A DNA stretch of 33,185 nt from Elusimicrobiota bacterium. GTDB taxonomy: Bacteria > Elusimicrobiota > Elusimicrobia > FEN-1173. Shown piece by piece: positions 1,571-30,690 of the stretch (positions within the stretch are counted from its first letter, which is position 1; every line of letters starts with the position of its first letter). The translations under genes were made by a program, and so were the position numbers. A model generated the notes under the pieces. That model searched no databases. It worked only from the letters and a program-made list of their open reading frames with translations, and had not been told where the DNA came from. The stretch lies in contig DAOQNO010000001.1 of NCBI GenBank assembly GCA_035332125.1, positions 1 to 33,185 on the forward strand, read 5' to 3'.

Positions 1571-2965
1571 ATGAAGCGACTCCTCCCCATCCTGGCTCTC
1601 CTTTGTCTCTGGGTTATTGCCCGCGCGGGCAAAAACCCCCTGCCGGAACCCGATCAGCAATCCCGGGTTTACCGATTCAAGCCCGTTCAATTCAAAACCA
1701 TTGATTCCTATTCCGATGAAAAACCCCTCTTAAACCAAATCGCCCGGGACACCTGGGGCTACTTCCGCGATTTGGTGGACAAACAGACCGGCATGCCCCT
1801 GGACAACGTGCTGATCGGCTCCACTTACACAAAAGTCAACAGCTACACCTCCACCACCAACATGGGGCTTTACCTCATGTGCCTGGTTTCCGCCGAAGAC
1901 TTCGGATACATAACGCGGACGGAAAGCCTCGCCCGGGCGCGGCGCCTTCTGTCGACGCTTCGGGAGGTGGACCATTGGGAAGGGCAATTTTTTAACTATT
2001 ACGAAACCATCACCACGGACGCCTCGTCGCGTTTCGTGTCCTCGGTGGACAACGGCTGGCTGGCCGCGGGGCTCATCGTGGCCCGACAAGCCTACCCCGA
2101 ATTGGAATCGGAAATCGATCCGATGCTTCGGCAAATGGATTTTTCGAAATTGTTCGATCCCGAGGCGGGTCAGCTCTATTTGGGATACGACGCCGACAAA
2201 AAGAAGCCCTCGGACTCCCATTACGGCTTGCTGTGCACGGAACCCCGTCTGGCCTCCTACATCGGCATCGCCAAGGGCGATTTGCCCCACGACCATTGGT
2301 ATCGGCTTTTTCGAACCCTCCCCCTGGATTGGGATTGGCAGAATCAAAAACCCAAGGGGAAAATCGTTGAAAAAGAAGGCGTTCCCGTTTTTTACGGCTA
2401 TTACGAGCGCAACAAAGTCCGTTGGGTGCCGTCCTGGGGCGGGAGCCTTTTTGAATTTTTGATGCCGACCCTCGTGTTGGACGAAGGCCGTCTATCGCCC
2501 AAGGGGTTGGGCGCCAACAACAAGATCGCCCTGGACGCCCAGATCCGCTATGCCCTCGAAGAACGGCGTTACCCGGTGTGGGGCCTTTCCCCCTGCGCCA
2601 CGCCCGACGATCCCCTGGGCTACAAGGAATACGGGGTTCCCTACTTGGGGGCCAAGGGCTACCGGGACGACGGCGTGGTCACCCCCCACGTGAGTTTTTT
2701 GGCCTTGTCCGTCGATGCGCCCCGGGCCATCGAAAACATTCGCCGTCTGGCGCGTTTCCGAAATTTCTATGGGGAATACGGATTTTACGACAGCATCAAC
2801 GTCAAGACGGGTCGAATTTCCCCGCGTTATTTGGCCTTGGACCAGGCCATGACGTTGGTGGCCCTGAACAATTACCTGAACAACGGCGCGATTCAAAAGC
2901 GGTTTTGGAGCCATTCCCTGATCCAGGCCCAATCCCGGCTACTCCGCGACGAGGTTTTTTTTTAA
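1571..2965 (+). CDS. Exported glucoamylase-like (alpha/alpha)6 glycoside hydrolase of DUF3131/GH144 type; candidate endo-beta-1,2-glucanase
   Basis: A purine-rich SD (GAGAAGGG, 1560-1567) precedes the ATG. The signal peptide is MKRLLPILALLCLWVIARA|GK. Motifs recalled from the 'glycoamylase'/DUF3131 family are present: NMGLYLMCLVSAEDFGYI, DNGWLAAGLIVA, WGGSLFEFLMPTLVL, YGFYDSINVKTG, LALDQAMTLVALNNYL. The family call is from memory, not from a search. Confidence 0.75.
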   Translation: MKRLLPILALLCLWVIARAGKNPLPEPDQQSRVYRFKPVQFKTIDSYSDEKPLLNQIARDTWGYFRDLVDKQTGMPLDNVLIGSTYTKVNSYTSTTNMGLYLMCLVSAEDFGYITRTESLARARRLLSTLREVDHWEGQFFNYYETITTDASSRFVSSVDNGWLAAGLIVARQAYPELESEIDPMLRQMDFSKLFDPEAGQLYLGYDADKKKPSDSHYGLLCTEPRLASYIGIAKGDLPHDHWYRLFRTLPLDWDWQNQKPKGKIVEKEGVPVFYGYYERNKVRWVPSWGGSLFEFLMPTLVLDEGRLSPKGLGANNKIALDAQIRYALEERRYPVWGLSPCATPDDPLGYKEYGVPYLGAKGYRDDGVVTPHVSFLALSVDAPRAIENIRRLARFRNFYGEYGFYDSINVKTGRISPRYLALDQAMTLVALNNYLNNGAIQKRFWSHSLIQAQSRLLRDEVFF

Positions 2966-2984
2966 GATATAACGGTCCGAATCG

Positions 2985-3755
2985 GTGATCCCCCGGACCG
3001 TTGGGGTTTTGACGCACCCCGACCCTGATCTTTCCGCGCCCTATTTCGTTGAAATTCTCGCCGGCCTTCGCCGGACTTTGGGAGCCATTCGCGTCAATCC
3101 GCCCCCGGGAACGCCGCTGACGGGCGTGGTCCGGGTGGCGCCGGAAGGAAAGGCGTCCCTGCCGGCGGGGTGGCGGCGACTCCCGACGGTGGTGGTCAGT
3201 GGCCGATCCGCGACGGCCCCTTCCTGGGACGTCGACAACGTGGTCTCGGCGCGGCGGCTGGTGGGTCTTCTGATTCGGCGCGGCCATCGGCGAATTGCTT
3301 TGATCAACGGAAAGTTGGACACGGCCAACGGGCGGGACCGCCGCCGGGGTTTTCGGCAGGCCCTGCGAAAAGCGGGGATTCGTCCGATCCCCGCCCTGGA
3401 AGTCGAAGGGCGCTTTGATCGAGAGCGCGGCCGTAAGGCCATGAAGTGGTTGTTGAATTTGAAACGGCCGCCAACCGCGGTGTTCGCGGCCAACGATGCC
3501 ATGGCCCTGGGGGCCCTCGAAGAATTACGATATCGGCGATGCCGGGGCGTGGCGGTGGCGGGGTTCGACGATGTCCCGGAGGCTCGGAGGGCGGGCTTAA
3601 CCACCGTTCGACCGCCTCTTCGTCGGCTGGCGGTCCAGGCGGGCCGGGCTCTTCGCCGGTGGGTTCAAAGGGACGAGCGCCCGGCGGCAAGGGCGATTGT
3701 GGTCCCGGCCCGGATCGTGATTCGAACGTCATCGATGAAACGTGTTGTTATTTAG
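2985..3755 (+). CDS. LacI/PBP1-family sugar-binding core domain protein lacking the N-terminal HTH
   Basis: It has the classic LacI core pattern: RTVGVLTHPDPDLSAPYFVEILAGL, then RRGHRRIALINGKLDTANGRDRRRGFRQAL, then AVFAANDAMALGALEEL...VAVAGFDDVPEARRAGLTTVRPP. The earliest possible start is GTG 2985, because an in-frame TAA lies at 2970-2972 and the upstream gene ends at 2965. That leaves no room for the ~60-aa HTH and hinge. Confidence 0.75.
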   Translation: MIPRTVGVLTHPDPDLSAPYFVEILAGLRRTLGAIRVNPPPGTPLTGVVRVAPEGKASLPAGWRRLPTVVVSGRSATAPSWDVDNVVSARRLVGLLIRRGHRRIALINGKLDTANGRDRRRGFRQALRKAGIRPIPALEVEGRFDRERGRKAMKWLLNLKRPPTAVFAANDAMALGALEELRYRRCRGVAVAGFDDVPEARRAGLTTVRPPLRRLAVQAGRALRRWVQRDERPAARAIVVPARIVIRTSSMKRVVI

Positions 3756-3783
3756 AAGCAAAGAACGAAAGTCAGGAGACGAT

Positions 3784-5733
3784 GTGAACGTCACGAAACG
3801 ACGTTGGATGCTGGTCGCCGCTCTGGCCGCCGCCGCCCCCTTGGGGGCCGCGGTGATTGATCCTTTTGAGTCCCTTTCGGGTTGGTCGACTTTCGCCGAT
3901 ACCGGGTCCACCGTGACTTTAAGCGCCGTCACGGGCGTCGCGGGCAACGCCCTTCAAATGAATTACGACATGACGGCCGGATCTTTTGTCGGCATCACCC
4001 GCACCTACAGTTCCCGGAATTACGCGGCCACGGGGGCCAACGCCCTCCGGTTCGCCTACCGGGCCTCGGGCCCCACCAACACGGCCCAAATCGAATTCGT
4101 CGACGCGGACAGCACCACCACGGTCTTGGCCGACGGCCTGGTTTACAAGTTTCCCGTGACCCCGGACAACACCTGGCGGGAACTCACCGTTCCCCTGACG
4201 GATTTCATTACCTTCGCCAACGGCAACTCTTCCTTCGATTTGTCCCAAACCGCGAAATTCAGCTTTGGCGTCACCAAAGACAACGGCTCGGCCGGGACCG
4301 GCACCGTTTATTTCGACGCGTTCCACTTGATCCGGGCGACCCAGCCCGTTTCCTTGATCGACGGCAGTGAAAATTCCATTCCCGGTTGCGTGGCCAATTC
4401 GGTTCTCAACACCTGCGTCAACGACCGCATCGGACCCCAGTCCATCATTTATTTCCAGAGCGCGGGGTCGGGATACTCCGCGGTCGTTTCGACGGTCACG
4501 ATGAAAGGGGCCAAAACCCGTGAACTCAAGTGCACCTTGGGCGGCGGGCAATTCTGCGGCGTGGCCGAGGAGCTGGGCGGAATGTCCCTCCGCGGCAACG
4601 AAAGCATTCGGTTTTACGCGGGTTCGAATTTCGGCGGTTCCTCCGTTAAAATGGAAGTGAAAGACGTGGCCAGCGTCACTTTCAGCACCACGGTCACGGG
4701 GCTCCCGGCGCCCCCGGCCAACTTTTCGACGTACACTTTTTCCGCGGCCGCCATCCAAGCGGCCCAGCCCGCCATCGACCTGAGCGCTCTCAAGGAAATT
4801 GTTTTTGTCTTTGACACCGCCGGCGCCCACGACCTTTATTTCGACGACCTGTCCATCGTTCCGCCCGCGGCGACTCTGGCCGACCTGTCCGTCGTGGAGG
4901 ATTTTGGGTCCGATCTGGCCGAAGGGAACTTCGTCACGGCGGCACCCACCCAGGCCACCGTGGGACTGTCCTACGTGGACGATCCGACGTCCTTGGGCGC
5001 CGGGGCCGACAACCGGGTGGCCAAGCTGGATTACAGCTTTGCCGTGGACCCTTCAACGCCCTTCGCCGTGGCGGAGCGGACGTTGGGCATCAACCTCCTG
5101 GCCGAGCCCGGTCTTCGCTTCCGGTTCAAAGGGACCGGGGGAAACGAAAATTTAGAGGTCAAAATCACCGACGGCGACGGAACGATCTACGTAAAGAAAT
5201 TGACCGAGGTGACGGACACCGGGGGGGTCTGGAAAACAGCCACCCTCAAAAGCGACCAGTTTTCCTTCAGCACGCTCGGCAGCGACGCGCGGTTGGATTT
5301 AAAGAACATTACGAAGGTGGACTTCGCGGTGTCTCTGGGCAAAGCGGCCGCGGGGACCTTGGCCTTGGACAATCTGGAATCCCTGCCGGCCACCGATTTT
5401 CAAAAAACGTCCATCGGACGCGTGTTGACCCAGGTGACCACCCCCAACAATCCCTTTTCCCCCAACGGGGACGGCATTAAGGACTCCTTCCGTTTAACCT
5501 ACACCCTCAGCCAAACGGCCCACGTGGTTCTCCGGTTTTACGCCCTGCACGGGGCTTTGATCAAAACCTTCGACGTCGGCGATCAAACGGCGGGGGACCA
5601 CGCCATCGATTGGGACGGCACCGCGGACGACGGGCGGCGGGTCGGCAACGGCCTGTGCCTGTTCTCCTTGGAGGCCGACGGAGCTATCGACGGGAAAGAC
5701 ACGTTTAAAGAAATCGCCGGGGTGCTCCGATGA
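3784..5733 (+). CDS. Secreted protein with 3 CBM-like beta-sandwich modules and a C-terminal FlgD-Ig/T9SS-like domain
   Basis: GTG 3784 lies 5 nt after AGGAG (3774-3778) and yields the signal peptide MNVTKRRWMLVAALAAAAPLGA|AV. Three ~160-aa modules each end in a '...G(T)-x-Y-F-D-x-(F/L)' strand (VYFDAFHL, LYFDDLSI, LALDNLE). The C-terminus (~5440-5730) has NPFSPNGDGIKDSF...VVLRFYALHGALIKTF...HAIDWDGTADDGRRVGNGLCLF. The ORF's maximal start, 3742, would overlap the upstream gene. Confidence 0.8.
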   Translation: MNVTKRRWMLVAALAAAAPLGAAVIDPFESLSGWSTFADTGSTVTLSAVTGVAGNALQMNYDMTAGSFVGITRTYSSRNYAATGANALRFAYRASGPTNTAQIEFVDADSTTTVLADGLVYKFPVTPDNTWRELTVPLTDFITFANGNSSFDLSQTAKFSFGVTKDNGSAGTGTVYFDAFHLIRATQPVSLIDGSENSIPGCVANSVLNTCVNDRIGPQSIIYFQSAGSGYSAVVSTVTMKGAKTRELKCTLGGGQFCGVAEELGGMSLRGNESIRFYAGSNFGGSSVKMEVKDVASVTFSTTVTGLPAPPANFSTYTFSAAAIQAAQPAIDLSALKEIVFVFDTAGAHDLYFDDLSIVPPAATLADLSVVEDFGSDLAEGNFVTAAPTQATVGLSYVDDPTSLGAGADNRVAKLDYSFAVDPSTPFAVAERTLGINLLAEPGLRFRFKGTGGNENLEVKITDGDGTIYVKKLTEVTDTGGVWKTATLKSDQFSFSTLGSDARLDLKNITKVDFAVSLGKAAAGTLALDNLESLPATDFQKTSIGRVLTQVTTPNNPFSPNGDGIKDSFRLTYTLSQTAHVVLRFYALHGALIKTFDVGDQTAGDHAIDWDGTADDGRRVGNGLCLFSLEADGAIDGKDTFKEIAGVLR

Positions 5734-6593
5734 ACCGCCGCTGGTCCTTTGCTTTCCTTTTGTTGGCCGCTCCCGCCCTGCGGGCGGCGTTCGAGCCCCT
5801 GGGGTACGGCGCCGCGGCCAAGGGCATGGGGGGCGCCTACGTGGCCTCCGCCGAAGACGGCACCGCCGCCTATTGGAACCCGGCCGGCCTGGCCCTGGTT
5901 CGTCAGCCGCAATTGACCGCTTCCATGGAAGACTTGTACGGATTGGGCCTCCTTCGCTACGCGGCCGTGGGTTATACCCATCCCCGGCTCGGCGGGGGAA
6001 CGCTGTCGGCCCATTTGCTCCATCTCGACACGACGGGCGAAGCCGATTTTTATAAATACGCCGAGAGCACTTACCTGGTGGCCTACGGCAAATCCCTCTG
6101 CCAGGACTGCCTGAGCGTGGGGGCGGGGCTCCGTTACTACGCCGCCCAGGGCGGCGGCGCCCGGGGGTCGGGCGTCGGCCTCGACCTGGGTCTTTTGTGG
6201 CGTCCCTTCGACGACCGCCTGCGCCTGTCGGCCGCTTGGCAGGACGCCAATCAGCCCTCCATTCGCTGGGACACGGGCGCCGAGGATCTCCAGCCCTACA
6301 CCGTCCGGACGGGCGCCTTGTTCCGTTTGACCACCACGACGGATTTGGCGGCGGAATGGGACAAGCGACGATTTGAGAAGGCCCAATGGCGGTTCGGCGG
6401 CGCCCAGCGATTGATGAAAAATCTGGTCACCTTCCGGGGCGGCCTCCACCGCGGGGGCGACCAGGAGCAATGGGGCTTTTCCGTGGGCGGCGGTTTCCAC
6501 TTCCGGACCTTTGATGTGGATTACGCCTGGGACAGCCAGGAAGCTCTCGGCAACACCCAAACCATGAGTCTCGGATTGAGGTTCGGCCAATGA
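5730..6593 (+). CDS. PorV/PorQ-like (UPF0164-like) outer-membrane beta-barrel protein
   Basis: The start overlaps the upstream stop as ATGA. The signal peptide is MNRRWSFAFLLLAAPALRA|AF. The N-terminal signature AAAKGMGGAYVASAEDGTAAYWNPAGLA matches the A-x-A-L-G-G-A...D(D/E)...NPA pattern of PorV/PorQ-type barrels. The rest shows alternating aromatic/Gly beta-strand periodicity and a C-terminal ...SLGLRFGQ. Confidence 0.7.
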   Translation: MNRRWSFAFLLLAAPALRAAFEPLGYGAAAKGMGGAYVASAEDGTAAYWNPAGLALVRQPQLTASMEDLYGLGLLRYAAVGYTHPRLGGGTLSAHLLHLDTTGEADFYKYAESTYLVAYGKSLCQDCLSVGAGLRYYAAQGGGARGSGVGLDLGLLWRPFDDRLRLSAAWQDANQPSIRWDTGAEDLQPYTVRTGALFRLTTTTDLAAEWDKRRFEKAQWRFGGAQRLMKNLVTFRGGLHRGGDQEQWGFSVGGGFHFRTFDVDYAWDSQEALGNTQTMSLGLRFGQ

Positions 6594-7876
6594 AAATCCT
6601 TCGTCCCGTTCTCGTCGGCGCGGTCCTGGTCGGAGCCCTCTCGATGGTTTCCACGGGCCTTCGCGCCGCGGGCCCCGTCCTCCTGCTCGACAATTTCGAT
6701 GAAGACAAGACCGAAAACGCCCTGGGCGGCGCCACCGGCGCCTGGATGGACCCCGAAGACAAAAGCCAGGGGTGCACCGCCTCGCGCGTCCAGCTGGACC
6801 GGCTGGGCTCCCTCGGGCGAAGCCTGCGACTTGATTTCGACATAGAAAGCCAACGGGAAAATATTCGGGTCCCCACGAATTTTTCCGTGGCCAGCCCGGC
6901 GGTCGCTTTGAACCAGGCCTTCAACGGTTATTACTCGGTGTTCCCGGCCCAGGACCTGCGCCCCTACAACTACTTGATTTTCTGGGCCAAGGGCGACGCC
7001 ACCGCCGGCTACACGCGTTCCTTTAAGATTGAAATCAAAGACGGTCTCAGCTCCGGCTACAAAGGATTTGTGATGGACGGATTGGGCACGGAATGGCGCC
7101 GGTTTGTCGTCCCCCTTCGGGATTTCGCCGACATCAAGGACTGGGGCGCGGTGAAGGAATTCGTGATCGTTTTCGCCGCCGACGCCGTGACGCGCAAAAA
7201 CGGCACTGTCTACATCGACGACGTGTATTTCGCCCAAAACCCCGACAACAATTTGACCCTCCCCGAACGGGAAATGACGGCCCGTCACGCCGAGAAACCG
7301 GTAACCCTGGACGGCAAGCCCTCCGAATGGCCCCGCCGGGATTTCATCGATTTGTCCCCTTCCGAATTCGTCGAATCCGGGGCCCGGGGGCTTCGGGACG
7401 CCGGGGCCCGCTTCGCCGTCCAGTGGGACGAGCAATGGCTTTATTTGACCGTTGATCTGGAAGACAACGAGATCCAAAACGGCGAAGAGGGCGAATCCCT
7501 GTGGAAAGGCGACGTGGTGGAGCTTTACGTCAACCCCACGGGTCCGGTTTTCACTTGGGGGGATCCGTCGGCGTTCCAGCTTGGTTTCTCCCCGGTGTCG
7601 GCTTCGGGCGTGCCGGGCCGGTGGGCGTGGTTTCAACGCCGGGCCCCCAAGGAAAACGAAGCCCGTTACGCCTGGGACAAAAAAAAGCACACAGCGGAAA
7701 TCGCCGTGGCCTGGTCGTTTTTGGGGGTCACCCCGGGCGTCAATCGGGACCTGGGTTTTTCCATCGCTTTTCACGACAAGGATTCCGCGGACGGAACGCC
7801 GGAAGCCAAGCTCCAGTGGAGTTTCCAGTCCCTGGGCGGTAAAAAAGCGCGACTTGGAAAGTTGGTGTTGAAATGA
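6590..7876 (+). CDS. Secreted carbohydrate-binding protein with an N-terminal CBM11/CIA30-like module and a C-terminal CBM9-like domain
   Basis: The start overlaps the upstream stop as ATGA, and a signal peptide ends ...STGLRA|AG. The N-terminal module reads LLLDNFDEDKTENALGGATGAW...YLIFWAKGD...FKIEIKD...WRRFVVPLRDFADI...VKEFVIVF...GTVYIDDVYF. The C-terminal part (~7262-7876) reads VTLDGKPSEWP...ARFAVQWDEQWLYLTVDLEDNEI...WKGDVVELYVNP...TAEIAVAWSFLG...GFSIAFHDKD, which fits a CBM9-like pattern. Confidence 0.75.
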   Translation: MKILRPVLVGAVLVGALSMVSTGLRAAGPVLLLDNFDEDKTENALGGATGAWMDPEDKSQGCTASRVQLDRLGSLGRSLRLDFDIESQRENIRVPTNFSVASPAVALNQAFNGYYSVFPAQDLRPYNYLIFWAKGDATAGYTRSFKIEIKDGLSSGYKGFVMDGLGTEWRRFVVPLRDFADIKDWGAVKEFVIVFAADAVTRKNGTVYIDDVYFAQNPDNNLTLPEREMTARHAEKPVTLDGKPSEWPRRDFIDLSPSEFVESGARGLRDAGARFAVQWDEQWLYLTVDLEDNEIQNGEEGESLWKGDVVELYVNPTGPVFTWGDPSAFQLGFSPVSASGVPGRWAWFQRRAPKENEARYAWDKKKHTAEIAVAWSFLGVTPGVNRDLGFSIAFHDKDSADGTPEAKLQWSFQSLGGKKARLGKLVLK

Positions 7877-10455: not shown

Positions 10456-10462
10456 ACCCCGC

Positions 10463-13554: not shown

Positions 13555-13596
13555 TTTTTCATGCATTCTCAGGAATCTTCTCAAAGGAGCGGAACG

Positions 13597-14679: not shown

Positions 14680-14698
14680 ACGGCGGTTTTGACGGCGG

Positions 14699-14733
14699 AG
14701 CCCGGTCCCCGGGAACGGCGCGGGGGCCGGGCT
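14699..14733 (+). terminator. Intercistronic stem-loop (possible attenuator or partial terminator) upstream of the giant gene
   Basis: A 12-bp stem joins agcccggtcccc (14699-14710) and gggggccgggct (14722-14733) with one G-U pair and an 11-nt loop. It is followed by a moderately T-rich tail (tccgctttcatcttaattc). It lies in the 91-nt gap between 14679 and 14771. Confidence 0.35.
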
Positions 14734-14770
14734 TCCGCTTTCATCTTAATTCAATCACGGAGAGCGTTTT

Positions 14771-17700
14771 ATGGAGCGGTGCGGACAACGAAAGGGATTC
14801 ACCAACAAGGCGACGGCCGAAGGGCGGGACGCGCGGGGCGGAACGCGTTGGATCGCCGCGCTGGTGGTCCTGTGGGTCGCCGCCTCGGCGATGGCCGCCG
14901 ACGGCCTCGCCTCCGCGCGCTCCCGAGGGGTGTTCAACATCGGCCCTTCCCAGGGCACCGTCAACACGCTCCAGGATCCGGACCTCCAGAAACCGGTTTT
15001 AAAATTTGATTTCACCGCGCCGGCCGGCGCGTTGGTGGGCGTGTGGACCAAGGATTATCCCTCGACGGTGAACGCCGGGGCGGTCCAGCGCGTGGTCGTT
15101 TCGGTCAAAGGGCCGACGGTTCCGCCGCCCGCTTCCGTGGCCCTCGAGATAAAGGGCGTCCGGGAAGTTCAACGCCTCCCCCTCGTCCTGCGCGCCGGGT
15201 GGAATCGGACCGAATCGGCGATTGATTGGGGTCGCATCGGGGCTTTGAAAGAAATCGTTTTTGTCGTTTCGTCGGCCCCCGGCCAAAAGGCCGCCGGGAC
15301 CCTATTGTTTGATTTGGAATTTGCGGCCGGAGCGCCCGCGTCCGCCGCGGTCCTTCCCGCGGACGCCCAGGCCCTGGACGCGGCCCACGCCCCCGCCCGG
15401 GGGTTCTTCAACATCGGACCCGCCGACGGGAAAGCGACCGCCGTTCCGGGCCCCGACGGCCGGGGCGCGCTCCAATTCGATTACGCCATCCCGCCCAAAT
15501 CCATGGCCGGGGTGTGGACGAAAGGCTATCCGCCCGCCCTTTCCCCGGCCACGGCGAACGCGGTGGAGGCGACGGTGCGTTTTCCCGCGGCGGGCGCCGC
15601 GCGCCGTTTGTCGGCCACGGTGGAACTCAAAGGAACGAAAGCCGTCCAACGCATCCCCCTCGAGTTGACCGACGGTGTATCCAAATCCCTTCACGCCGTC
15701 GATTGGAAAACCATCGGAAAGCTCAAAGAGGCCGTCCTGGTCGTGTCGCCGGCCGGGGGGAAAAGCGAAACGGGAACCCTTCTCTTTAATTTGGCGTTCG
15801 TGAAGCGCGCCGTGTTGCCCAAAACGGGCGGCGCCCGCCGTTTGGCGGAGGTGGCGGAGCGGGGCGCATTCAACATCGGCAAAGCCCAGGGAACGATTTC
15901 CCGCGTTCGGGACGGGGAACTCCGCCGGGACGTCCTTCGGTTTGATTTCACGGCCGCGCCCAAGGCGGTCGTGGGGTTGTGGAGCAAGGGCTACGCGGCG
16001 GATTTGTCCGCGGCCGTGGCCAACGCGGTGTCCGTGGGGGTCAAAGGCGGGCGCGGGGCCCCCGTGGCCGCGGTGGGTTTGGAAATCAAGGGCGACAAAG
16101 AAACCCAACGCATTCCCCTTTCCGTGGGCGCCGAATGGACCCGAACCGATCGGGCGGTGGAGTGGGACGCGATCGGAAAGGTAAAGGAAGTCGTTTTCGT
16201 CGTCACGCCCCTGGACCCGGCCAAAAAAAGCGCGGGCCGTTTCTATTTCGATCTGGCGTTTGAAAAAACACCGGTGGCGCCCGCCGGCGCGCCGGGGTTG
16301 GGTCTCTTGAGCGCCACGGAAAAAGGCGTGTTCACCATCGGCGGCGCGGAAGGGCGCGTGGTCATCGAGTCCGAGGCCGCGGCCAAAAAAAATGTTTATA
16401 AATTCACCTACGCCGTGGCGAGCGGCAGTTTGGCGGGCGTTTGGACCAAGGGATACCCGGCCGACTTGACGGCCGCCACCGCCAACGCCATCAACGCGGC
16501 GGTTAAAACGACCACCCCGGAGCAACGGGAAACCTTGTCCGTCGCCCTTGAGTTGAAGGGCGACAAGGCCGTTCAGCGCGTTCCGTTGGAAACGGGCGAC
16601 GGGTGGGCCACCACCGAACACGCCATCGACTGGCCGACCATCGGAAATCTGAAGGAAGCCGTTTTTGCCGTCACCCCCGCCCCCGGCCGATCCAGCCGGG
16701 GCGACCTGTATTTCGACCTTTCTTTCCTCCAGGGAGGAACGCCGGATCTCGCCGGGGCCGGCGCCCCGGGCGCCTTCGGGTTGTTGAACGCCGGCAAGCG
16801 CGGGGTGTTCAACATGGGGGCCTCGGACGGCCGGATCCTCGTGGCTTTTGACGACACCGTCAAAAAGGACCTGATTCGATTTGAATTCACCGCCGCCAGC
16901 GGGTCCGCCGTGGGGGTGTGGAGCAGCGAGTATCCCCCGGCCTTGACGCCGGAAACGGCCAACGGCGTTCGCGTGGCGGTCCACGCCGCGGACGCGGCCC
17001 AGGCGGCCGCCGTGGCGGTGGCCGTTGAGATCAAGGGCCTCAAGGAAACCCAGACCGTGGAAGTTCCTCTCCACGAAGGGTGGACGACGGTGCGGGAAGG
17101 GGTGGATTGGAAAACCATCGGGGGGCTCAAAGAAGCGGTGTTCGTCGTCAAGCCGACCCCGGGCGGCGGATCCGTCAACGGGGCGCTGACGCTGGATCTG
17201 GAATTCATCCAAGGCGATTTTGTCCTGAAGAAAGGCCCCCGGGTCGGCGGTAAGATCGGCTTGGTGTTGCTGACGGGCTTCCTTCTTTTTCTCGCGACGG
17301 CTTTGGTCGGCCGATGGATCCGCGGTCGGTCGCCGTCGGTTCCGGCCCCGGACGCCATCCCCGTTCCGGGGATGGGTCGGGATCTCTTGATGGGATCCCT
17401 TTTGACGGCCGGCCTCGTCGGGACGGTGGCCACCTTCGTGGTGGGTTCCCTCCCGGGGTCCGAAGGGTCTTTCGGGTTTCTGTTGTTGGGCGCCCTGGGC
17501 GCCTTGGTGGGCGAAGGCGCCACCCGGATTCTGGCTCAACGCCCGGGCACCCCGGGCGAAGTCTTCCTGAATTTTGTCTACACCGGCTTGGTGGCCGCGA
17601 GCTCAAGCCTTCAGCCCCTGTGGTTGGCGCCCACCAACGGCGCCCACATATTCCTGAACAACCACCTGACGGCGGCGGTGTTGTTCGCGCTCTACCACGG

Positions 17701-20700
17701 GGTCAACGCCGCTTCCCTCGCCTCGACCGGGAAACCCCTTCGGCCGGTGGTCGGCGCGCTCCTCACCGGCGTTCCGACCCTTTTCGGCGCGCTCCTGGCC
17801 CTTCAGAGCGCCGGATTCGTCGAGGGCCTGGCCGACGCGCTCACCGGGGGCGGTTTCGCCGGACGCGGCCTGCTTCTCCAGACCCTGGGGCGGGTTTTGC
17901 TGGTGTTCGCGGTCAACGAAGCCGTGGCCAACGCCATCGGGCTCGCCGTCAAAGGCAAGGGCCTCACCTCGGCCCGTGGGCATTTGCTTCTTTTCGCCGT
18001 GTCGCTCGGCGTTGTCGTGGCGCCCCAAATCGCGGACGCCGGGTCGTCGGCTTGGGTCGCTTCCCTGCCGCCGCCGGCCGCGGCCGGCGTGGCCGTAGCG
18101 GCCGCCATGGTCGCCCAGGCGGGCCTGTGGGTGGAGGTGTATCTGGTCTCCGGCCTGGTGTTGGACGGGATTTACGGATACGCCCCCGCCCGGGTTCCCC
18201 TCTACCGGCACGCCGCCGTGGGCCTGCAAAAAGGTCTCGCCTTCAGCGGACTTTTCCTCGGCGTTCTGTTCGCGGTCAAGCTCGGATTGTCCGTGGCCGC
18301 GGTCCAGGAATTTCTCGCGGGATCGCCGCTGTTGGCCGGGGCGGTCCTCGGGGCTCTGGTTTATCCTTTCGCCAAGGCGATCGTGGAAAGCTTTGACGGG
18401 AGCATGTCGTTTTTCCGCCGAGCGGTCTACAGTTACCGGAACGGAACCCTTTACGTTCGCGGCGCGGTGGCGGGCGCGGCCCTGGCCTTCGGTTTCACCG
18501 GCGGGTGGGCCGCCCGTTCCACCGGCGAACGCCTCGCCTTCGGCCTTCTGGCCGGCGCCCTCGCTTCGGCGGGGATCAGTGTGCTCCGCGACGCGGTTTA
18601 CGCCGCCACCCGCCGCGGTCGCGTGGGCGTTTGGAAAATTTATCTGGTCGACGGCGGATTGGGGGCCTTCATCGGCGCGGCCTTGGCTTTTTATTTGGAC
18701 GCCGCCCAGGTGCCCGTGTTGGTGGAAAAATTCAAACTTTACACCTCGAGCGGTTTGCCCTCCCAGAACTACACGATTTACGCGCTTCTCAGCAAATGGG
18801 GCCGGGTGGATCTGGGTTCCTTTGCCGGCGGGGCCAAACTGTTCTTCAACGAATCCCTGGCCGGGGTCCTGACCTGGGCCATCGCGGCGTGGCTGTTCGC
18901 GGTCAACCGGGTGTTCATGACCGCGTACTTTCAAAAGGACAAGCAGCCGATCCGGCACTTTTTCTCCCGGGCCGGCCTCGTGGAGTTGGGCGTCAACACG
19001 ATTCACGTGCTTCGCTGGGGTCTGTGGATGGCGCCCATCATCAACACGGGCCTCCGAATGATGGGCCACGCCACCTGGTACAACCAGGACGGCGCGATTC
19101 GAACCCTGGTGGCCATCGTCAAGAACATCACGCTCCACCCCGCGGATTTTCAAGCCTGGAGCCTGAACTTGTTCGTGGCGTTGCTGGCCTACGACGCGGT
19201 CCGCGTGTTGATCTGGATCGACCACATGGGCCTGCGGGTGGCGACCCTCGTCAACCTGAGCTTCCTCGGCATGGACAAACTGGACGAACGCATCGCCCGT
19301 TTCATCGGACCCTCCGCCGCCCAGCGTTACATTCCCGAAGGGGTCAAACGGTTCACGACCTGGGCCCCGCTCCTGATCCCGTTCTACATTCCCCGGGGAG
19401 CGGACTGGGACATGGCCTGGGAAACCTCCCAAAAAATGCAGCGGGCCGCCGCCGAAGCCGGCGGTTTGGACGCTTTTCTCCGGGGCGTTTCGCCCCTGGC
19501 CTGGGCCCTCTGGGGCGCCGGCGCCCTGGCCCTCTTCACGGGACTGATTGTCCTTGGTCGCAAGCGCGCGGAACGTCGTTCGGGGGTCCGGGCCCATGCC
19601 GCGGAATTGGCGAACCGGGAGTACAAGGTGGTGATCAAGGAAAACGGCGAATTCCACAGTGAAATTCTGCAAAAGGGATACGACGTGACCCGCCGGTCCT
19701 ACGACACCCTGGACCCCGCCGGCCGAACCCTGTTTTTGGTCGACACCGAAATCCCGCTCGGGCGCCCGGGCCGCTATTGGCCCCTGGCCGGGAATTTCCC
19801 CCGGGATCGCTTCGACGCGCCCGTGGTTGAGCGTTTCGGCGACGCCCTCCGTTTGATGACTTCCTCCCACGGCGTGCGCGCCACGATCGACGTCCGTCTG
19901 CCGGACCGGGACACCCCGGCGGAGCTGTGGACCCTCACCCTGGAGAACCAGTCCGACCAGCCCCGTCAATTGGTGGCCGTTCCCTACGTGGAGTGGGTGC
20001 TGGATCGACCCGATTCCGACAAAGGACATACCCAGTATGGCCGCCTCTTCCCGGAGATGGAATACGTCCGGGAATCCAACGCCGTCCTGGCCTGGCAGAA
20101 AAAGACGAAGACCATGGGGTATCTGGCGGTTCAAACGGCGCCCCGGGGGTTCTGCACGTCCCGCATGGATTTCATCGGACGCGCCCGAAGTCTCTGGTCT
20201 CCCCGGTTGTTGGAAACCCTTAAATTCTTGGACCCGCAAGACACGGCGGGGTACCCCACCTTCGACCCCATCGCCGGCTTAAAAATCGACGTGGAATTGG
20301 GCGCCCGGGAATCCAAAACTCTCCGTCTGATTTTGGGGAGCGCGAAAAGCCGGGAAGCGGCTCTGGCCGTTCTGCAAAAGCACCTTCGACCCGAAACCGT
20401 GGCGCCGGCCAGCCCGGCCCGGAAGGGCCACCGGGTGCCGCTGATCGGCCACGGCGAAATTCCACCGGGAACGCCCCAGCCGTACTCCGACTATTCGCCC
20501 GATGGAAACACCCTGCGGGTGCACACGCCCCTTACCCCGCGCCCCTACGATCACGCCCTCTCGAACGCGGTGGGGCACTACGTGATGGTCACGAACCGGG
20601 GGCTCCACACGACCTCCAACGGCAATTCCCAGCAAAACCCCGTGACCCCCGATTGGCCCGACACGGTCACCCGGGAGCTTCCCGCCGAGGCCATTTATCT

Positions 20701-22804
20701 TTACGACCCGGAGGAAAAGGAGTGGTTTTCGCCCACCCATCATCCGTTGAACGACCCCGCGGCCAAAAACACCGCGGCCTTCGGCGTGGACGGGACCGCC
20801 GTTTTCCACATGACCAAGAATTCCCTGTCCACCGAATTGACCGTGTTCGTCCCGCCCCAGGAACCCCTGGGGATTTACCGCCTGACGGTCAAAAACAAAG
20901 GGACCCGGACGCGCCGCCTTCGGGTGGCGCCCTATTTCCAAATCGTCCTCGCCGGACAGGCGGAGCCCCGTCGGCGGCCCCTCAAAGTGACGCTGGACAA
21001 ATCCCTGGACGCGCTTTATTTTGAAAACCCGGTAAACGCTTTCCGCTGGGGTCCGGCTTTTGCCTCGCTCTCCATCCCGGCGGAACGGATCGAATCCCAG
21101 CGGGGACGCTTCTTTGGGACCGGCCGCGGGGTGGACCGCCCGCTGTTGGTCGAGCGGGGAGAGCCCGATTGGACGCAAACGTCGGACGACCGGCCGGTGG
21201 CGGGTTTCCTCGGCTCCCTGGAAATCCCCCCGGGCGAGGAGCGCACCGTGGTGGTGGTTCTGGGCCAGATCGATACCCGGGAACAGGCCGCCGCCCTCAT
21301 TCGAAAATACAAGAGCGCGGAAGCCGCCCAGGCCAGTCTGGAAGAAACCCGCCGGTGGTGGACCCGGTTGGTGGGCACCGTGCGCCTGGAAACCTCCAGC
21401 GTTGATTTCGACCGGTTCCAAAACTGGCTCAAATACCAGGCCGTGGCCGAGCGCCTTTGGGCCCGGCGCGGCTTCTATCAAACCAGCGGCGCCTTCGGTT
21501 TTCGGGACCAGCTTCAAGACTCGGTCAATCTGACCTGGGTGGACCCCGCTCTGGCGCGCAAACAAATTCTTCTTCACGCCTCCCAGCAATTCATCGAGGG
21601 CGACGTGGTGCACTGGTTCCACACCCTGCACGACGGGCGAACGGCCTTTTCCAATCGGTCCCACGCCTCGGACAACCTGCTGTGGCTGGCCTGGGCGGCG
21701 GCGGAATACGTGCGCCTCACCGGGGACGAAACGTTGTTGGACGAAATGACGACGTACTTAAGGGCCGAGAACCCCTTCCTGCCCCTGCCCCACAACAAGC
21801 ACGGCTGGGGCACCATCTATCCGCGATCCACCCGGGGCGATACGGTTTACCGGCATAGCCTGAAGGCCATCGACCTGGTCCTCGAAAAACGCATGGGAGT
21901 CAACGGAATCCCATTGATCGGCACCGGCGATTGGAACGACGGTTTGGACGAAATCGGCAGCGAGGGTCGGGGGGAAAGCGTTTGGCTCGGGTTCTTCCTC
22001 CTCTATATATTGAAGAACACCCTGAACATCATCGAGAAAAAAGACGGCCGCCACCGCCGGGATTACTACCTGAAACGCGCCCAGGAACTGGAAGCGGCGT
22101 TGGAAAAAACCTGGCGGGGGGACCGCTATCTTCGGGCCATTCACGACGACGGGACGGAGATCGGCGTGAAAGATTCCGGCGTGTGGGAAATCGACGCCTT
22201 GACCGCCGCCTGGGCGGTCATGGCCGGGTTGAACCCGGAGCGGGCGCGCACGGTCTTTCAAACGGCGCTCACCGTGTTGGAGCGGGAGAACGTTGTTCTC
22301 CTGGGCTGGCCCGCCTTGCGGGAGGACACGAAGCCCTATCTCGGGCGTAGCAGTCATTATCCCGAAGGGGTCCGGGAAAACGGCATGTACTGCCACGGCG
22401 TGCAGTGGCTTGTAAAAGCGGCGCGAATTCTCGCGGAGAAAGCGGAGGAGGACGGCGACGTCGCCAAGGGCAAGGAATACCGGGACGCCAGCTACCGCCT
22501 CTGGATGAAAATCGCTCCCCTGTCCCACGTCGCCACCGGAGAGATTGAGGTTTACGGCGGTCAGCCGAACAAGCAATCGGCCGACTTCCTTACGACCTTT
22601 GATCAGGGCCGGATGATCTGGCACGGCTACACCGGGGCCGCCGGCTGGATGCTCCGCCAGGCCTTTGAAGGCGTGGCCGGGGCTTCTCTCGTCGGAAACC
22701 AGGTGGTGATGCCCCTGGATCTTTCGGAGCTTCGCGGGCCCCTTCGGCTCAAGGCCATTTCCCGGGATTTGTCGGACAGCCCCCTTCGCCCCGGCCGCCC
22801 ATAG
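14771..22804 (+). CDS. Giant (2,677 aa) membrane-embedded GH94 glycoside phosphorylase with an exported 5x repeat array (Cgs-like but without a recognisable GT84 domain)
   Basis: SD GGAGAG (14759-14764) lies 6 nt before the ATG. The leader is signal-like (WIAALVVLWVAASAMA). Five tandem repeats span 14918-17220. A run of ~15-20 hydrophobic segments spans ~17230-19570. The C-terminal ~1,060 aa carry GH94 hallmarks: GFRDQLQD (21497-21520), VVHWFH, GTGDWNDGLD (catalytic-acid motif GDWND at 21927-21941) and YCHGVQW. Confidence 0.9.
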   Translation: MERCGQRKGFTNKATAEGRDARGGTRWIAALVVLWVAASAMAADGLASARSRGVFNIGPSQGTVNTLQDPDLQKPVLKFDFTAPAGALVGVWTKDYPSTVNAGAVQRVVVSVKGPTVPPPASVALEIKGVREVQRLPLVLRAGWNRTESAIDWGRIGALKEIVFVVSSAPGQKAAGTLLFDLEFAAGAPASAAVLPADAQALDAAHAPARGFFNIGPADGKATAVPGPDGRGALQFDYAIPPKSMAGVWTKGYPPALSPATANAVEATVRFPAAGAARRLSATVELKGTKAVQRIPLELTDGVSKSLHAVDWKTIGKLKEAVLVVSPAGGKSETGTLLFNLAFVKRAVLPKTGGARRLAEVAERGAFNIGKAQGTISRVRDGELRRDVLRFDFTAAPKAVVGLWSKGYAADLSAAVANAVSVGVKGGRGAPVAAVGLEIKGDKETQRIPLSVGAEWTRTDRAVEWDAIGKVKEVVFVVTPLDPAKKSAGRFYFDLAFEKTPVAPAGAPGLGLLSATEKGVFTIGGAEGRVVIESEAAAKKNVYKFTYAVASGSLAGVWTKGYPADLTAATANAINAAVKTTTPEQRETLSVALELKGDKAVQRVPLETGDGWATTEHAIDWPTIGNLKEAVFAVTPAPGRSSRGDLYFDLSFLQGGTPDLAGAGAPGAFGLLNAGKRGVFNMGASDGRILVAFDDTVKKDLIRFEFTAASGSAVGVWSSEYPPALTPETANGVRVAVHAADAAQAAAVAVAVEIKGLKETQTVEVPLHEGWTTVREGVDWKTIGGLKEAVFVVKPTPGGGSVNGALTLDLEFIQGDFVLKKGPRVGGKIGLVLLTGFLLFLATALVGRWIRGRSPSVPAPDAIPVPGMGRDLLMGSLLTAGLVGTVATFVVGSLPGSEGSFGFLLLGALGALVGEGATRILAQRPGTPGEVFLNFVYTGLVAASSSLQPLWLAPTNGAHIFLNNHLTAAVLFALYHGVNAASLASTGKPLRPVVGALLTGVPTLFGALLALQSAGFVEGLADALTGGGFAGRGLLLQTLGRVLLVFAVNEAVANAIGLAVKGKGLTSARGHLLLFAVSLGVVVAPQIADAGSSAWVASLPPPAAAGVAVAAAMVAQAGLWVEVYLVSGLVLDGIYGYAPARVPLYRHAAVGLQKGLAFSGLFLGVLFAVKLGLSVAAVQEFLAGSPLLAGAVLGALVYPFAKAIVESFDGSMSFFRRAVYSYRNGTLYVRGAVAGAALAFGFTGGWAARSTGERLAFGLLAGALASAGISVLRDAVYAATRRGRVGVWKIYLVDGGLGAFIGAALAFYLDAAQVPVLVEKFKLYTSSGLPSQNYTIYALLSKWGRVDLGSFAGGAKLFFNESLAGVLTWAIAAWLFAVNRVFMTAYFQKDKQPIRHFFSRAGLVELGVNTIHVLRWGLWMAPIINTGLRMMGHATWYNQDGAIRTLVAIVKNITLHPADFQAWSLNLFVALLAYDAVRVLIWIDHMGLRVATLVNLSFLGMDKLDERIARFIGPSAAQRYIPEGVKRFTTWAPLLIPFYIPRGADWDMAWETSQKMQRAAAEAGGLDAFLRGVSPLAWALWGAGALALFTGLIVLGRKRAERRSGVRAHAAELANREYKVVIKENGEFHSEILQKGYDVTRRSYDTLDPAGRTLFLVDTEIPLGRPGRYWPLAGNFPRDRFDAPVVERFGDALRLMTSSHGVRATIDVRLPDRDTPAELWTLTLENQSDQPRQLVAVPYVEWVLDRPDSDKGHTQYGRLFPEMEYVRESNAVLAWQKKTKTMGYLAVQTAPRGFCTSRMDFIGRARSLWSPRLLETLKFLDPQDTAGYPTFDPIAGLKIDVELGARESKTLRLILGSAKSREAALAVLQKHLRPETVAPASPARKGHRVPLIGHGEIPPGTPQPYSDYSPDGNTLRVHTPLTPRPYDHALSNAVGHYVMVTNRGLHTTSNGNSQQNPVTPDWPDTVTRELPAEAIYLYDPEEKEWFSPTHHPLNDPAAKNTAAFGVDGTAVFHMTKNSLSTELTVFVPPQEPLGIYRLTVKNKGTRTRRLRVAPYFQIVLAGQAEPRRRPLKVTLDKSLDALYFENPVNAFRWGPAFASLSIPAERIESQRGRFFGTGRGVDRPLLVERGEPDWTQTSDDRPVAGFLGSLEIPPGEERTVVVVLGQIDTREQAAALIRKYKSAEAAQASLEETRRWWTRLVGTVRLETSSVDFDRFQNWLKYQAVAERLWARRGFYQTSGAFGFRDQLQDSVNLTWVDPALARKQILLHASQQFIEGDVVHWFHTLHDGRTAFSNRSHASDNLLWLAWAAAEYVRLTGDETLLDEMTTYLRAENPFLPLPHNKHGWGTIYPRSTRGDTVYRHSLKAIDLVLEKRMGVNGIPLIGTGDWNDGLDEIGSEGRGESVWLGFFLLYILKNTLNIIEKKDGRHRRDYYLKRAQELEAALEKTWRGDRYLRAIHDDGTEIGVKDSGVWEIDALTAAWAVMAGLNPERARTVFQTALTVLERENVVLLGWPALREDTKPYLGRSSHYPEGVRENGMYCHGVQWLVKAARILAEKAEEDGDVAKGKEYRDASYRLWMKIAPLSHVATGEIEVYGGQPNKQSADFLTTFDQGRMIWHGYTGAAGWMLRQAFEGVAGASLVGNQVVMPLDLSELRGPLRLKAISRDLSDSPLRPGRP
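14918..17220 (+). repeat. Five in-frame tandem protein repeats (~154-160 aa each, diverged) within the giant gene
   Basis: Each unit opens with (R/K)G-x-F-(N/T)-(I/M)-G, at nt ~14927, ~15400, ~15862, ~16323 and ~16802. Each continues with L-x-F-(D/E/T)-(F/Y), G-(V/L)-W-(T/S)-K-(D/G)-Y-P, (L/V)-E-(I/L)-K-G-x-K-x-x-Q-x-(I/V/L)-P-L, (I/V)-(D/E)-W-x-x-I-G-x-(L/V)-K-E-(I/A/V)-V-F-V-V and (L/F)-x-F-(D/N)-L-x-F. Confidence 0.85.
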
Positions 22805-22825
22805 CCTAAATCCCCTCGTTCCAAG

Positions 22826-22867
22826 CCCCGCCGAAGGCCCCGCCTTCGGCGGGGTTTTTCTTTATTT
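22826..22867 (+). terminator. Rho-independent terminator closing the glycan operon
   Basis: A perfect 12-bp GC stem joins ccccgccgaagg (22826-22837) and ccttcggcgggg (22843-22854) with a 5-nt loop. It is followed directly by tttttctttattt, and it begins 22 nt after the stop at 22804. Confidence 0.85.
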
Positions 22868-22963: not shown

Positions 22964-23233
22964 TTTCCAGGGTCGTATTACAATGTATCCAAGAGTTCCC
23001 GGCTCACATCGTAATCGACAACGCATTGTTGGAGCCGGCGCCGGAAACCCGTCAATGGCGAGGGGTTCGATTCTTCGCCGGCGCGGGACGGTCCGCGGCG
23101 ACGCGCAAAACAACGCGCGCCGGGCGCGCCCGGCCGATCCGTCCAGGGCCTCTTCACCGGCCTCGAATTGACGGTGCCTTCCAGCGACGGTTCCAAAGCC
23201 CCGCACTCATCCTTGATGCATAGGAGGAAGCAC

Positions 23234-23971: not shown

Positions 23972-23991
23972 AGCCACAAGCCCGGCGGCGA

Positions 23992-24013
23992 CCCGGGGGC
24001 TTCGGCCCCCGGG
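23992..24013 (+). other. Intercistronic GC hairpin with a UUCG tetraloop after the small-subunit gene
   Basis: cccgggggc (23992-24000), ttcg (24001-24004) and gcccccggg (24005-24013) form a perfect 9-bp stem. There is no U-tract. It lies between the stop at 23971 and ATG 24033. Confidence 0.5.
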
Positions 24014-24032
24014 CGCGCCCGCGGGGTGGCCT

Positions 24033-27145: not shown

Positions 27146-27146
27146 T

Positions 27147-30587: not shown

Positions 30588-30674
30588 GGGCGAAATCGAA
30601 TCGGCCGGCGCGGAGGAAAGCCCCGGCCTCCCATTCGCGCGTCGGGGCCGCGTCTGGGAAAATCCCGACGAGAA

Positions 30675-30683: not shown

Positions 30684-30690
30684 ATCGATT

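Follow-up and report, generated by a model that had tools for sequence, protein, structure and literature searches.

Many Proteobacteria have β-1,2-glucans as polymers of the envelope and of host interaction, and the natural turnover of these glucans is poorly charted. The enzyme families acting on them were defined only between 2014 and 2025. Clusters for the use of sophoro-oligosaccharides have been described in Listeria innocua (lin1839-lin1841 with permeases) and Streptomyces griseus (SGR_2423-2427). As reported (PMC12369401, PMC3960220), both contain a Lin1841-type binding protein and two permeases of a CUT1 ATP-binding cassette (ABC) importer, joined in Listeria by a glycoside hydrolase family 94 (GH94) phosphorylase and in Streptomyces by a GH193 β-1,2-glucanase. 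Lin1841 is the subunit of the Listeria sophoro-oligosaccharide cluster that binds Sop3-5 (PMC12369401). We investigated a 33,185-nt stretch of contig DAOQNO010000001.1 from an uncultured Elusimicrobia bacterium, hereafter the window, in which counterparts of all these components were found within the interval 1571-22804, together with a giant membrane protein of 2,677 residues. The best explanation, which we favour with moderate confidence, was that this interval is a β-1,2-glucan utilisation locus, in which the membrane domain of the giant protein would couple periplasmic glucan to cytoplasmic phosphorolysis.

The first gene (1571-2965, + strand) encoded a predicted GH193-type endo-β-1,2-glucanase with a signal peptide, recognised by the Pfam families Glycoamylase and DUF3131 and by its homology to SkSGL of Sanguibacter keddieii. 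Residues 54-463 were aligned with domain 1-470 of SkSGL in one high-scoring segment pair (HSP) at 35% identity, 255 bits, and E = 2e-84. The SkSGL sequence was taken from the Data S2/S4 supplement of PMC12102758 and the list of its residues from the text and Table S3. E223, D160, F294, and Y351 of the hydrolase corresponded to E246, D160, F318, and Y373 of SkSGL, which are the general acid, the candidate general base, and the two clan-defining residues, respectively (PMC12102758). The two enzymes thus had the acid, the candidate base, and the clan Phe/Tyr in common, and the hydrolase had the same-length (α/α)6-type catalytic domain as SkSGL of the SGL clan (GH144, GH162, GH189, and GH192-194). 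It differed from SkSGL in that the identity was only 35%, the Ig-like C-terminal domain was absent, and the activity is predicted. The first-pass annotation, made from the sequence alone, had called this enzyme GH144-type. The GH144 structures matched at E = 2e-10 (5gzh/5gzk) and 4e-11 (5z06), compared to 2e-84 for SkSGL, and the label was changed to GH193-type, a different family of the same clan. That note had also named a family of unrelated specificity as an outcome that would speak against its proposal; the hydrolase belonged to the β-1,2-glucanase clan, in which all characterised hydrolases are β-1,2-specific (PMC12102758). The published Group 2 set already holds DUF3131 proteins of Elusimicrobia (PMC12102758). 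The family was abundant in Elusimicrobia and Omnitrophota, and its longer members often carried CBM11 or CBM30 carbohydrate-binding modules (CBM) in the same chain.

The best solved relative of the hydrolase was the GH189 cyclization domain TiCGSTg of cyclic β-1,2-glucan synthase (Cgs; 8wy1, E = 3e-55). This alignment was fragmented into separate HSPs, and residues ~142-305 of 8wy1 (~160 aa) had no counterpart. A long α5 helix and extra helices inserted between α4 and α5 separate GH189 from its sister Group 2, which is GH193 (Nakajima et al., PMC12102758). The GH189 nucleophile, TiCGS E1442, was replaced by Pro in the hydrolase (WGISESG versus WGLSPCA), and the supporting H1536/H1537 pair (PMC10834661) by Leu-Asp. 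A stand-alone Cgs cyclase was rejected, since the hydrolase had neither the Glu nucleophile nor the His pair nor the insertion, and SkSGL aligned better, end to end. The absence of these GH189 hallmarks argued for a hydrolase rather than a transglycosylase, and we assign the product as a probable GH193-type endo-β-1,2-glucanase that is presumably inverting.

Another marker was the importer. The gene at 10463-12712 (+ strand; Pfam SBP_bac_1 and BPD_transp_1) encoded a solute-binding domain (10523-11620) fused to the first permease of a CUT1 ABC importer (11819-12682), and it was followed by a second ABC permease gene at 12709-13554 (+ strand; BPD_transp_1, 83 bits). The closest structure to the solute-binding domain (residues 21-386) was Lin1841 itself (5ysb, E = 1e-83). 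The next was 3uor (2e-71), and unrelated sugar binders appeared only from 3e-43. The Lin1841-like binder is a third independent pointer to β-1,2-glucan, beside the hydrolase and the phosphorylase described below. The fusion of binder and permease in one 749-aa chain is unusual among CUT1 systems, and it was kept in two related loci, L005 and L007. As had been stated before, neither an ABC ATPase nor a β-glucosidase is encoded locally, according to Pfam scans of the window proteins. The ATPase of the importer is supplied in trans.

The remaining marker was the cytoplasmic end of the giant transmembrane (TM)-GH94 protein (14771-22804, + strand). Pfam, PDB sequence searches, and models divided this protein into a signal/anchor segment (aa 25-45), five CBM11-like repeats (14897-17224; residues 43-818), a polytopic membrane domain (17228-19588), and a GH94 module with GP1-GP3 (19610-22801). 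The membrane domain, at residues ~820-1606, consisted of ~790 residues with hydrophobic helices. Residues 1614-2677 were colinear with Cgs residues 1545-2756, which contain GP1, GP2, and the catalytic GP3 (E = 4e-110, 34-36% identity). The Pfam scores of its supersandwich and (α/α)6 catalytic domains exceeded the curated thresholds, with 232 bits for PF06165 in two stretches and 206 bits for PF17167. Asp2390 in the motif GDWND (nt 21938-21940) was aligned with D2528 of RrCGS, the catalytic Asp (PMC11842490), and the phosphate-site residues, the Arg of GFRDQ and the His of YCHG, were aligned with motifs of Cgs and cellobiose phosphorylase. Of the 31 long family members, 24 had exactly GDWND, and GDWDD was present in at least one more (P0017). 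These results suggested that the GH94 module is catalytically intact and lies on the cytoplasmic end.

The phosphorylase had previously been described as SOGP-type. Structures of LpSOGP exist in the PDB. No SOGP chain was found among the PDB sequence matches at E ≤ 0.01, compared to 4e-110 for Cgs, and the module was for this reason assigned as Cgs-type. The assignment did not lead to an unrelated specificity, another outcome named in advance as adverse, and the catalytic Asp was retained. The earlier description of a membrane/cytoplasmic GH94 fell short in that the protein is not simply a tethered enzyme but belongs to an undescribed family with a new membrane domain. The whole protein was also considered as a Cgs, and this was rejected because there was neither a GT84 nor a GH189 cyclase domain; the Rossmann-like (RFL) insert was missing as well. 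Cgs matched the giant protein only from residue 1614 on, and no Pfam glycosyltransferase match was found in it. The spacing between GP1 and GP2 was ~45 residues, where Cgs has residues 1847-2012 (PMC10901819). True Cgs matches bore PF10091, which was absent from the giant's family. The JGI annotation calls the giant protein a 'cyclic beta-1,2-glucan synthetase'.

Three unrelated proteins, namely the GH193 hydrolase, the Lin1841-like binder, and the Cgs-type GH94, thus agreed on β-1,2-glucan. The core proposal of the first-pass annotation, a β-1,2-glucan capture/turnover system rich in CBM-like modules, was supported by these three independent markers.

The modules themselves were examined by several methods. 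Fifteen copies of one CBM11-like β-sandwich were distributed over six proteins, as had been estimated before, and BLASTP, hidden Markov models (HMMs), hhalign, and a fold match bore this out. Iterated local HMMs placed three copies in the product of 3742-5733, one in 6590-7876, two each in 7873-10455, 13561-14679, and 28010-29260, and five further copies in the giant protein. The E-values of these iterations refer to a database of 19 proteins, and the later rounds include their own members, so no weight was placed on them. BLASTP among the window proteins linked the modules of the five smaller proteins (those starting at 3742, 6590, 7873, 13561, and 28010) at E = 1e-13 to 1e-5. Pfam CBM_11 exceeded its cutoff in the proteins at 3742 (53 bits) and 7873 (50 bits) and was at the cutoff in a third; CBM30 and CIA30 gave related matches. 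Since the five repeats of the giant entered the iteration solely via an 8.5-bit match, they were tested separately. Profile-profile comparison of these repeats with the other ten modules gave an hhalign probability of 94% (E = 1e-7). Repeat 1 was modelled with AlphaFold on 33 repeats of the family (pLDDT 94.8). The best PDB folds for this model in Foldseek were Clostridium thermocellum CBM11 structures (6r3m, 6r31, and 1v0a; E = 5e-7 to 2e-6, TM 0.60), followed by CIA30/NDUFAF1. The hhalign link and the CBM11 fold match of the giant's repeat make the count of fifteen sound. The modules were therefore homologous to each other and to CBM11, where unrelatedness would have told against the earlier proposal.

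These modules gave some support to the reading that the substrate is a different β-glucan (cellulose-derived, mixed-linkage, or β-1,3) and that the β-1,2 signal is an artefact of distant homology. Characterised CBM11, CBM30, and CBM9 modules bind β-1,4/mixed-linkage glucans and xylan, and the best fold match of the repeat was a CBM11 complexed with a mixed-linkage tetrasaccharide. In addition, GH94 also includes cellobiose, cellodextrin, chitobiose, and laminaribiose phosphorylases. The enzymes and the binder pointed the other way. The hydrolase was assigned to GH193, and the characterised SGL-clan hydrolases are all β-1,2-specific (PMC12102758). The Lin1841-like binder matched at E = 1e-83, with a gap of 40 orders to other sugar binders, and Cgs-type GH94 scored 75 orders of magnitude better than cellobiose phosphorylase. 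No glucanase of the GH5, GH9, GH16, or GH26 type was present in Pfam scans of the window. We regard a different substrate as highly improbable. The presence of CBM11/CBM30 in the same chain as SGL-clan relatives was an indirect hint on the ligand of the modules. A literature search of open-access text gave no paper on a β-1,2-glucan-binding CBM, and the CBM11-like modules are candidates for the first of this kind.

The most unusual part of the locus was the membrane domain of the giant protein. It had no match in Pfam, NCBIfam, or the PDB by sequence. An exhaustive HMMER search of 1.8 billion representatives gave 408 clusters with this domain. The long cluster members had ~1,800-2,000 aa, and the ~1,050 residues after the membrane domain were GH94 in every one checked. 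About 14-16 membrane helices were predicted. The AlphaFold model was confident and almost wholly helical (pLDDT 86.4, pTM 0.85), and the best Foldseek hit in the PDB (E = 0.12, TM 0.13) was noise. No internal duplication was detected by hhalign of halves and quarters, where the sole match was the overlap left between segments. Judged from the sequence and this model, the domain may be a previously unseen fold without a known structural relative. A 39-sequence alignment contained ~60 invariant residues, including the motifs ESFDGS, RWGLWM, WYNQDG, and DHMGLRVAxLVN, which in the giant lie at positions 1206 (ESFDGS), 1415 (RWGLWM), 1436 (WYNQDG), and 1484 (DHMGLRVATLVN). Conservation peaked in the C-terminal third of the domain and was lowest in the first and last helices. 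Because of the ~60 invariant residues, the membrane domain was considered to be more than an anchor.

The last helix was followed by an Arg/Lys-rich stretch and then by the GH94 module. This stretch and the exported N-terminus suggested a topology with the repeats outside and the GH94 inside. Since one chain joins binders in the periplasm to a conserved polytopic domain and to an exo-acting phosphorylase in the cytoplasm, a coupling across the membrane was proposed. Most simply, the domain would be a conduit for chains that are too long for the ABC system. That the domain carries or couples glucan across the membrane is the weakest step, and we put it forward tentatively. In the same tentative way, one polypeptide might bind periplasmic β-1,2-glucan by its CBM11-like repeats, thread the chain through its membrane domain, and phosphorolyse it processively, or in reverse polymerise from glucose-1-phosphate and export the product.

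The locus could also be catabolic with the giant acting only as a membrane-tethered phosphorylase for oligomers imported by the ABC system, so that no sugar crosses through it. The membrane domain and repeats would then act as a scaffold, as a place where the importer docks, or as a ligand sensor by which the enzyme is gated. It agrees with such a role that the locus already has a full binding-protein/permease route, that no transporter-like fold or internal repeat was detected in the membrane domain, and that conservation is poor in the first and last helices, as in simple anchors. However, a domain of ~790 residues with ~60 invariant, largely polar or aromatic residues far exceeds the needs of an anchor. 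The architecture also persisted in genomes without an adjacent importer, and members without repeats (P0017 and the Verrucomicrobiota loci) still retained the membrane domain. A mere tether was thus judged rather unlikely.

The family was widespread. About 17 proteins in a collection of 5.8 billion matched the giant over most of its length, followed by a sharp drop in score to true Cgs, which matched in the GH94 part only. At least 577 stretches of genomes of GTDB species encoded the membrane domain, and those among the matches listed were all metagenome-assembled genomes (MAGs), mostly of Omnitrophota, then Elusimicrobia, Planctomycetota, Verrucomicrobiota, Chlamydiota, and others. A literature search of open-access text gave no paper on the TM-GH94 architecture, nor on GH94 in Omnitrophota or Elusimicrobia. 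We conclude that the TM-GH94 family is undescribed but widespread in Omnitrophota, Elusimicrobiota, and the phyla of the Planctomycetota-Verrucomicrobiota-Chlamydiota (PVC) group. The number of N-terminal repeats was 0, 1, 2, 3, 4, or 5 across the family. The Verrucomicrobiota loci L087-L091 and locus L010 (P0017) had no periplasmic CBM11-like repeat and started directly with the membrane domain. Because some members have none, the repeats were considered accessory to the core of membrane domain and GH94.

The neighbours of the family were analysed by clustering all adjoining open reading frames (ORFs) of 86 loci without prior labels. The SGL clan was the most recurrent neighbour family (20 of 86 loci). 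It was followed by generic histidine kinases and an unannotated family, and then by two permease families (12 of 86 loci each). Among the 31 loci that had flanks of 5 kb or more on each side, 8 had an SGL-clan gene together with a permease. Neither a glycosyltransferase nor a Cgs N-terminal/GT84 match was found among the neighbours of the 86 loci, and a Cgs N-terminal query gave no match in 92 loci. The whole locus was syntenic in L005, where the giant was 63% identical, and in L007. The conservation of gene order with the giant gene, which had been suggested as a check, therefore held for these close relatives, but in most genomes the giant gene stood alone. An Omnitrophota-type locus was observed in L006, L018, L019, L022, L056, L058-L060, L064, and L084. 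Its order was a binding protein, an 803-aa soluble GH94, a response regulator, a histidine kinase, a CBM11 protein, an SGL-clan enzyme, a TPR protein, the TM-GH94, a second SGL-clan enzyme, two permeases, a ROK kinase, and an M48 peptidase. In loci of other organisation, from Omnitrophota and further lineages, the TM-GH94 gene was likewise accompanied by SGL-clan genes, CBM11 proteins, CUT1 permeases, a ROK kinase, and a second GH94 that is soluble.

Catabolism was favoured because import genes and a kinase recur with the family, and the catabolic β-1,2-glucan reading of the locus appeared likely. The polymer would be captured on the cell surface and in the periplasm by the CBM11-like proteins, one of which has a sorting domain like that of the type IX secretion system (T9SS) and is encoded beside a PorV-like barrel. 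The GH193 enzyme would cut the polymer internally into oligomers, and the ABC importer would take up products of Sop3-5 size. The GH94 module would then phosphorolyse oligomers from the non-reducing end to give glucose-1-phosphate, saving ATP.

The main alternative was biogenesis, in which the TM-GH94 would be a phosphorylase-type synthase/exporter that elongates from glucose-1-phosphate. In this reading the chain would reach the periplasm through the membrane domain, be held there by the repeats, and be shortened by the GH193 enzyme, in the way that OpgG/OpgD of E. coli trim the product of OpgH. The periplasmic β-1,2-glucanases OpgG/OpgD participate in the biosynthesis of osmoregulated periplasmic glucans (OPG). 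In favour of biogenesis, most genomes have the giant gene on its own among housekeeping genes, a placement also common for cgs, and the gene is conserved across whole phyla. The biosynthetic enzyme Cgs has the GH94 module closest to that of the giant, and GH94 enzymes make Sop-n from glucose-1-phosphate in vitro (PMC3960220). On the other side, the informative neighbours were import and catabolic genes (the Lin1841-like binder, CUT1 permeases, ROK kinase, soluble GH94, and two-component sensors), and a primer-forming glycosyltransferase was neither fused nor adjacent. Moreover, cellular phosphate levels favour phosphorolysis. Biogenesis was accordingly judged unlikely.

Several observations weighed against the utilisation locus as we propose it. 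Every specificity was assigned by homology at 31-36% identity. To our knowledge, characterised CBM11/CBM30 modules bind β-1,4 and mixed-linkage glucans and not β-1,2-glucan. The membrane domain had no detectable relative or internal repeat, and nothing positively marked it as a channel. The giant gene lay amid unrelated genes in L001-L004 and L010-L012, and this solitary placement is equally compatible with an autonomous housekeeping role and with a catabolic role. Only 9 of the 31 loci flanked by 5 kb or more on each side had an SGL-clan neighbour. In addition, the periplasmic β-1,2-glucanase OpgG of E. coli serves glucan biosynthesis, so the link to a glucanase alone does not fix the direction. 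Finally, the largest internal gap of the locus (91 nt, 14680-14770) lay directly before the giant gene and contained a weak hairpin at 14720-14738 (8 pairs, G+C-rich, with a poor T-tail), which together permit separate regulation. The hairpin may be an attenuator or processing site through which the giant gene is regulated separately.

The layout of the locus was largely as first described. The interval contained ten + strand genes, all co-directional, instead of the eleven counted before. The gene overlaps noted at 5730, 6590, 7873, and 12709 were all present, with 4 nt each, and the remaining junctions were short gaps or overlaps except for the 91-nt gap. The upstream gap of 130 nt was located at 1441-1570. 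The strong terminator reported after the locus was confirmed and placed at 22823-22857 (+ strand), where an intrinsic terminator with a 16-pair stem, 11 G-C pairs, and a T-run closes the locus; it was by far the strongest such site in the window. The base composition of the window was 57-69% G+C. The window was colinear with a contig of the Elusimicrobia MAG GCA_016722575.1 (L007) at 84% nucleotide identity.

The gene at 2985-3755 (+ strand) encoded a 256-aa LacI-type sugar-binding effector domain (Pfam Peripla_BP_3, 97 bits). NCBIfam matches spanned only ~136-332 of PurR/CytR. Neither a signal peptide nor a helix-turn-helix (HTH) was present, no HTH was found in an alternative frame upstream, and the length of 256 aa was kept in L007/L008. 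The earlier assignment as a periplasmic binder was replaced by a cytoplasmic LacI-like domain. The product may be a cytoplasmic sugar sensor that works via a partner.

The gene at 3742-5733 (+ strand) encoded a putative surface glycan-binding protein with a signal peptide, CBM11-like modules at 3844-4341, 4408-4869, and 4882-5394 (Pfam CBM_11, 53 bits; local HMM), and a FlgD_ig/CHU_C-type C-terminal sorting domain at 5446-5679 (FlgD_ig, 43 bits). Its true start is possibly at 3784 or 3808, and the counterpart in L007 was called from 3808. The next gene (5730-6593, + strand), which overlaps it by 4 nt, encoded a PorV/PorQ-like outer-membrane β-barrel (NCBIfam PorV_fam, 77 bits, under the cutoff of 90). 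The barrel is the presumed partner of the preceding sorting-domain protein, and the order of sorting-domain protein and barrel gene was seen twice in the window, again at 25442-28073. Of the barrels assigned to the interval before, the one at 5730-6593 stood, and the second (27147-28073) belonged to the next locus. The sorting-domain scores were past the Pfam cutoffs for FlgD_ig (43 bits) and CHU_C (32.5 bits), and TIGR04131 gave 18-21 against a cutoff of 35. The two barrels scored 77 and 49 with PorV_fam, for which the cutoff is 90.

Three further exported proteins carried CBM11-like modules, all on the + strand. The product of 6590-7876 had one module (6686-7243) and a CBM9-like domain (7388-7822), identified with Pfam and local HMMs. 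The product of 7873-10455 (860 aa) had CBM11/CBM30-like modules at 7957-8403 and 8428-8958 (Pfam CBM_11, 50 bits; CBM30, 34 bits), followed by a 498-aa C-terminal region (8959-10452) that gave no Pfam, NCBIfam, or PDB sequence match. This region could be an unrecognised enzyme, such as the missing exo-glucosidase. The product of 13561-14679 had two modules (13735-14196 and 14218-14676) after a low-complexity linker, according to Pfam, BLASTP, and local HMMs.

Outside the interval, a neighbouring locus at 23168-29260 repeated the pattern. Its sorting-domain protein (25442-27145, CHU_C/type-B) was followed by a PorV/PorP-like barrel (27147-28073) and by the product of 28010-29260 (+ strand), which has two CBM11-like modules at 28202-28726 and 28745-29257 (BLASTP and local HMMs). 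Two exported proteins without a family match preceded 25442-27145, and the locus was syntenic in L005. Downstream of the glucan loci, 30559-31878 encoded a Mrp/NBP35-type ParA P-loop ATPase fused to a GBBH-like N-terminal domain, which appears to be an ordinary housekeeping gene. At the other end, positions 1-1440 were not a separate small gene. Comparison with the related MAG (L007, 1-9870) identified them as the 3' end of a gene with 5,241 codons, of which the window holds the C-terminal 479 aa. This protein of 5,241 residues had 3,289 residues without a Pfam match and ended 130 nt ahead of the glucan locus.

Compared to known systems, the giant protein was similar to Cgs in that both have ~2,700-2,800 aa, lie in the inner membrane, and end in a C-terminal GH94 with the supersandwich GP1, GP2, and catalytic barrel GP3. 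The giant lacked GT84, the GH189 cyclase domain, and the Rossmann-like GP1-GP2 insert. It had about 14-16 predicted helices of an unrelated domain, whereas Cgs has six, and a large periplasmic N-terminus, whereas the soluble domains of Cgs are all cytoplasmic (PMC10901819). The OpgH/OpgG pair of E. coli, our model for the biosynthetic alternative, likewise combines an inner-membrane glucan enzyme and a periplasmic β-1,2-glucanase on one polymer. However, OpgH is a GT2 enzyme using UDP-glucose and OpgG is GH186, and neither family was present in this locus.

The locus also resembled the polysaccharide utilisation loci (PULs) of Bacteroidota, in which surface-exposed non-catalytic glycan binders are encoded beside a degrading enzyme and an importer. 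As for T9SS type-B cargo with adjacent PorP/SprF-like genes, a candidate sorting-domain cargo was followed twice by a PorV/PorP-like barrel. In contrast to Bacteroidota PULs, there was no SusC/SusD, uptake at the inner membrane would be by an ABC importer, the host is an Elusimicrobiota bacterium, and the sorting-domain and PorV scores were below or near the curated cutoffs.

The large family exposed here is unstudied, and annotation pipelines mislabel it as cyclic glucan synthase. If its membrane domain moves glucan over the membrane, this would be a new solution to polysaccharide transport and a useful part for enzymatic glucan synthesis. Whichever way the polymer crossed the membrane, its passage would be coupled to phosphorolysis, in place of ATP or nucleotide sugars. 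Even if the domain does not move glucan, the family offers structural and biochemical studies a defined target.

The closest likeness was to the Listeria and Streptomyces clusters, with which the locus shares the import of oligomers followed by cytoplasmic breakdown and an importer that needs no local ATPase. It differed in the absence of a GH3/GH1 β-glucosidase and in the fusion of the binder to a permease. It also differed in its diderm host, in the layer of fifteen CBM11-like modules at the surface and in the periplasm, and in the sorting-domain/PorV-like pair. In place of a soluble SOGP, its GH94 formed the cytoplasmic end of a membrane protein of 2,677 aa. The scheme of binding protein, GH94, and glucanase is thus taken into a diderm, uncultured phylum, with a dense CBM11-like layer added. 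We conclude that the cluster is a variant of the sophoro-oligosaccharide systems of Listeria and Streptomyces, and that its novelty lies in the family of the giant protein and in the membrane domain.

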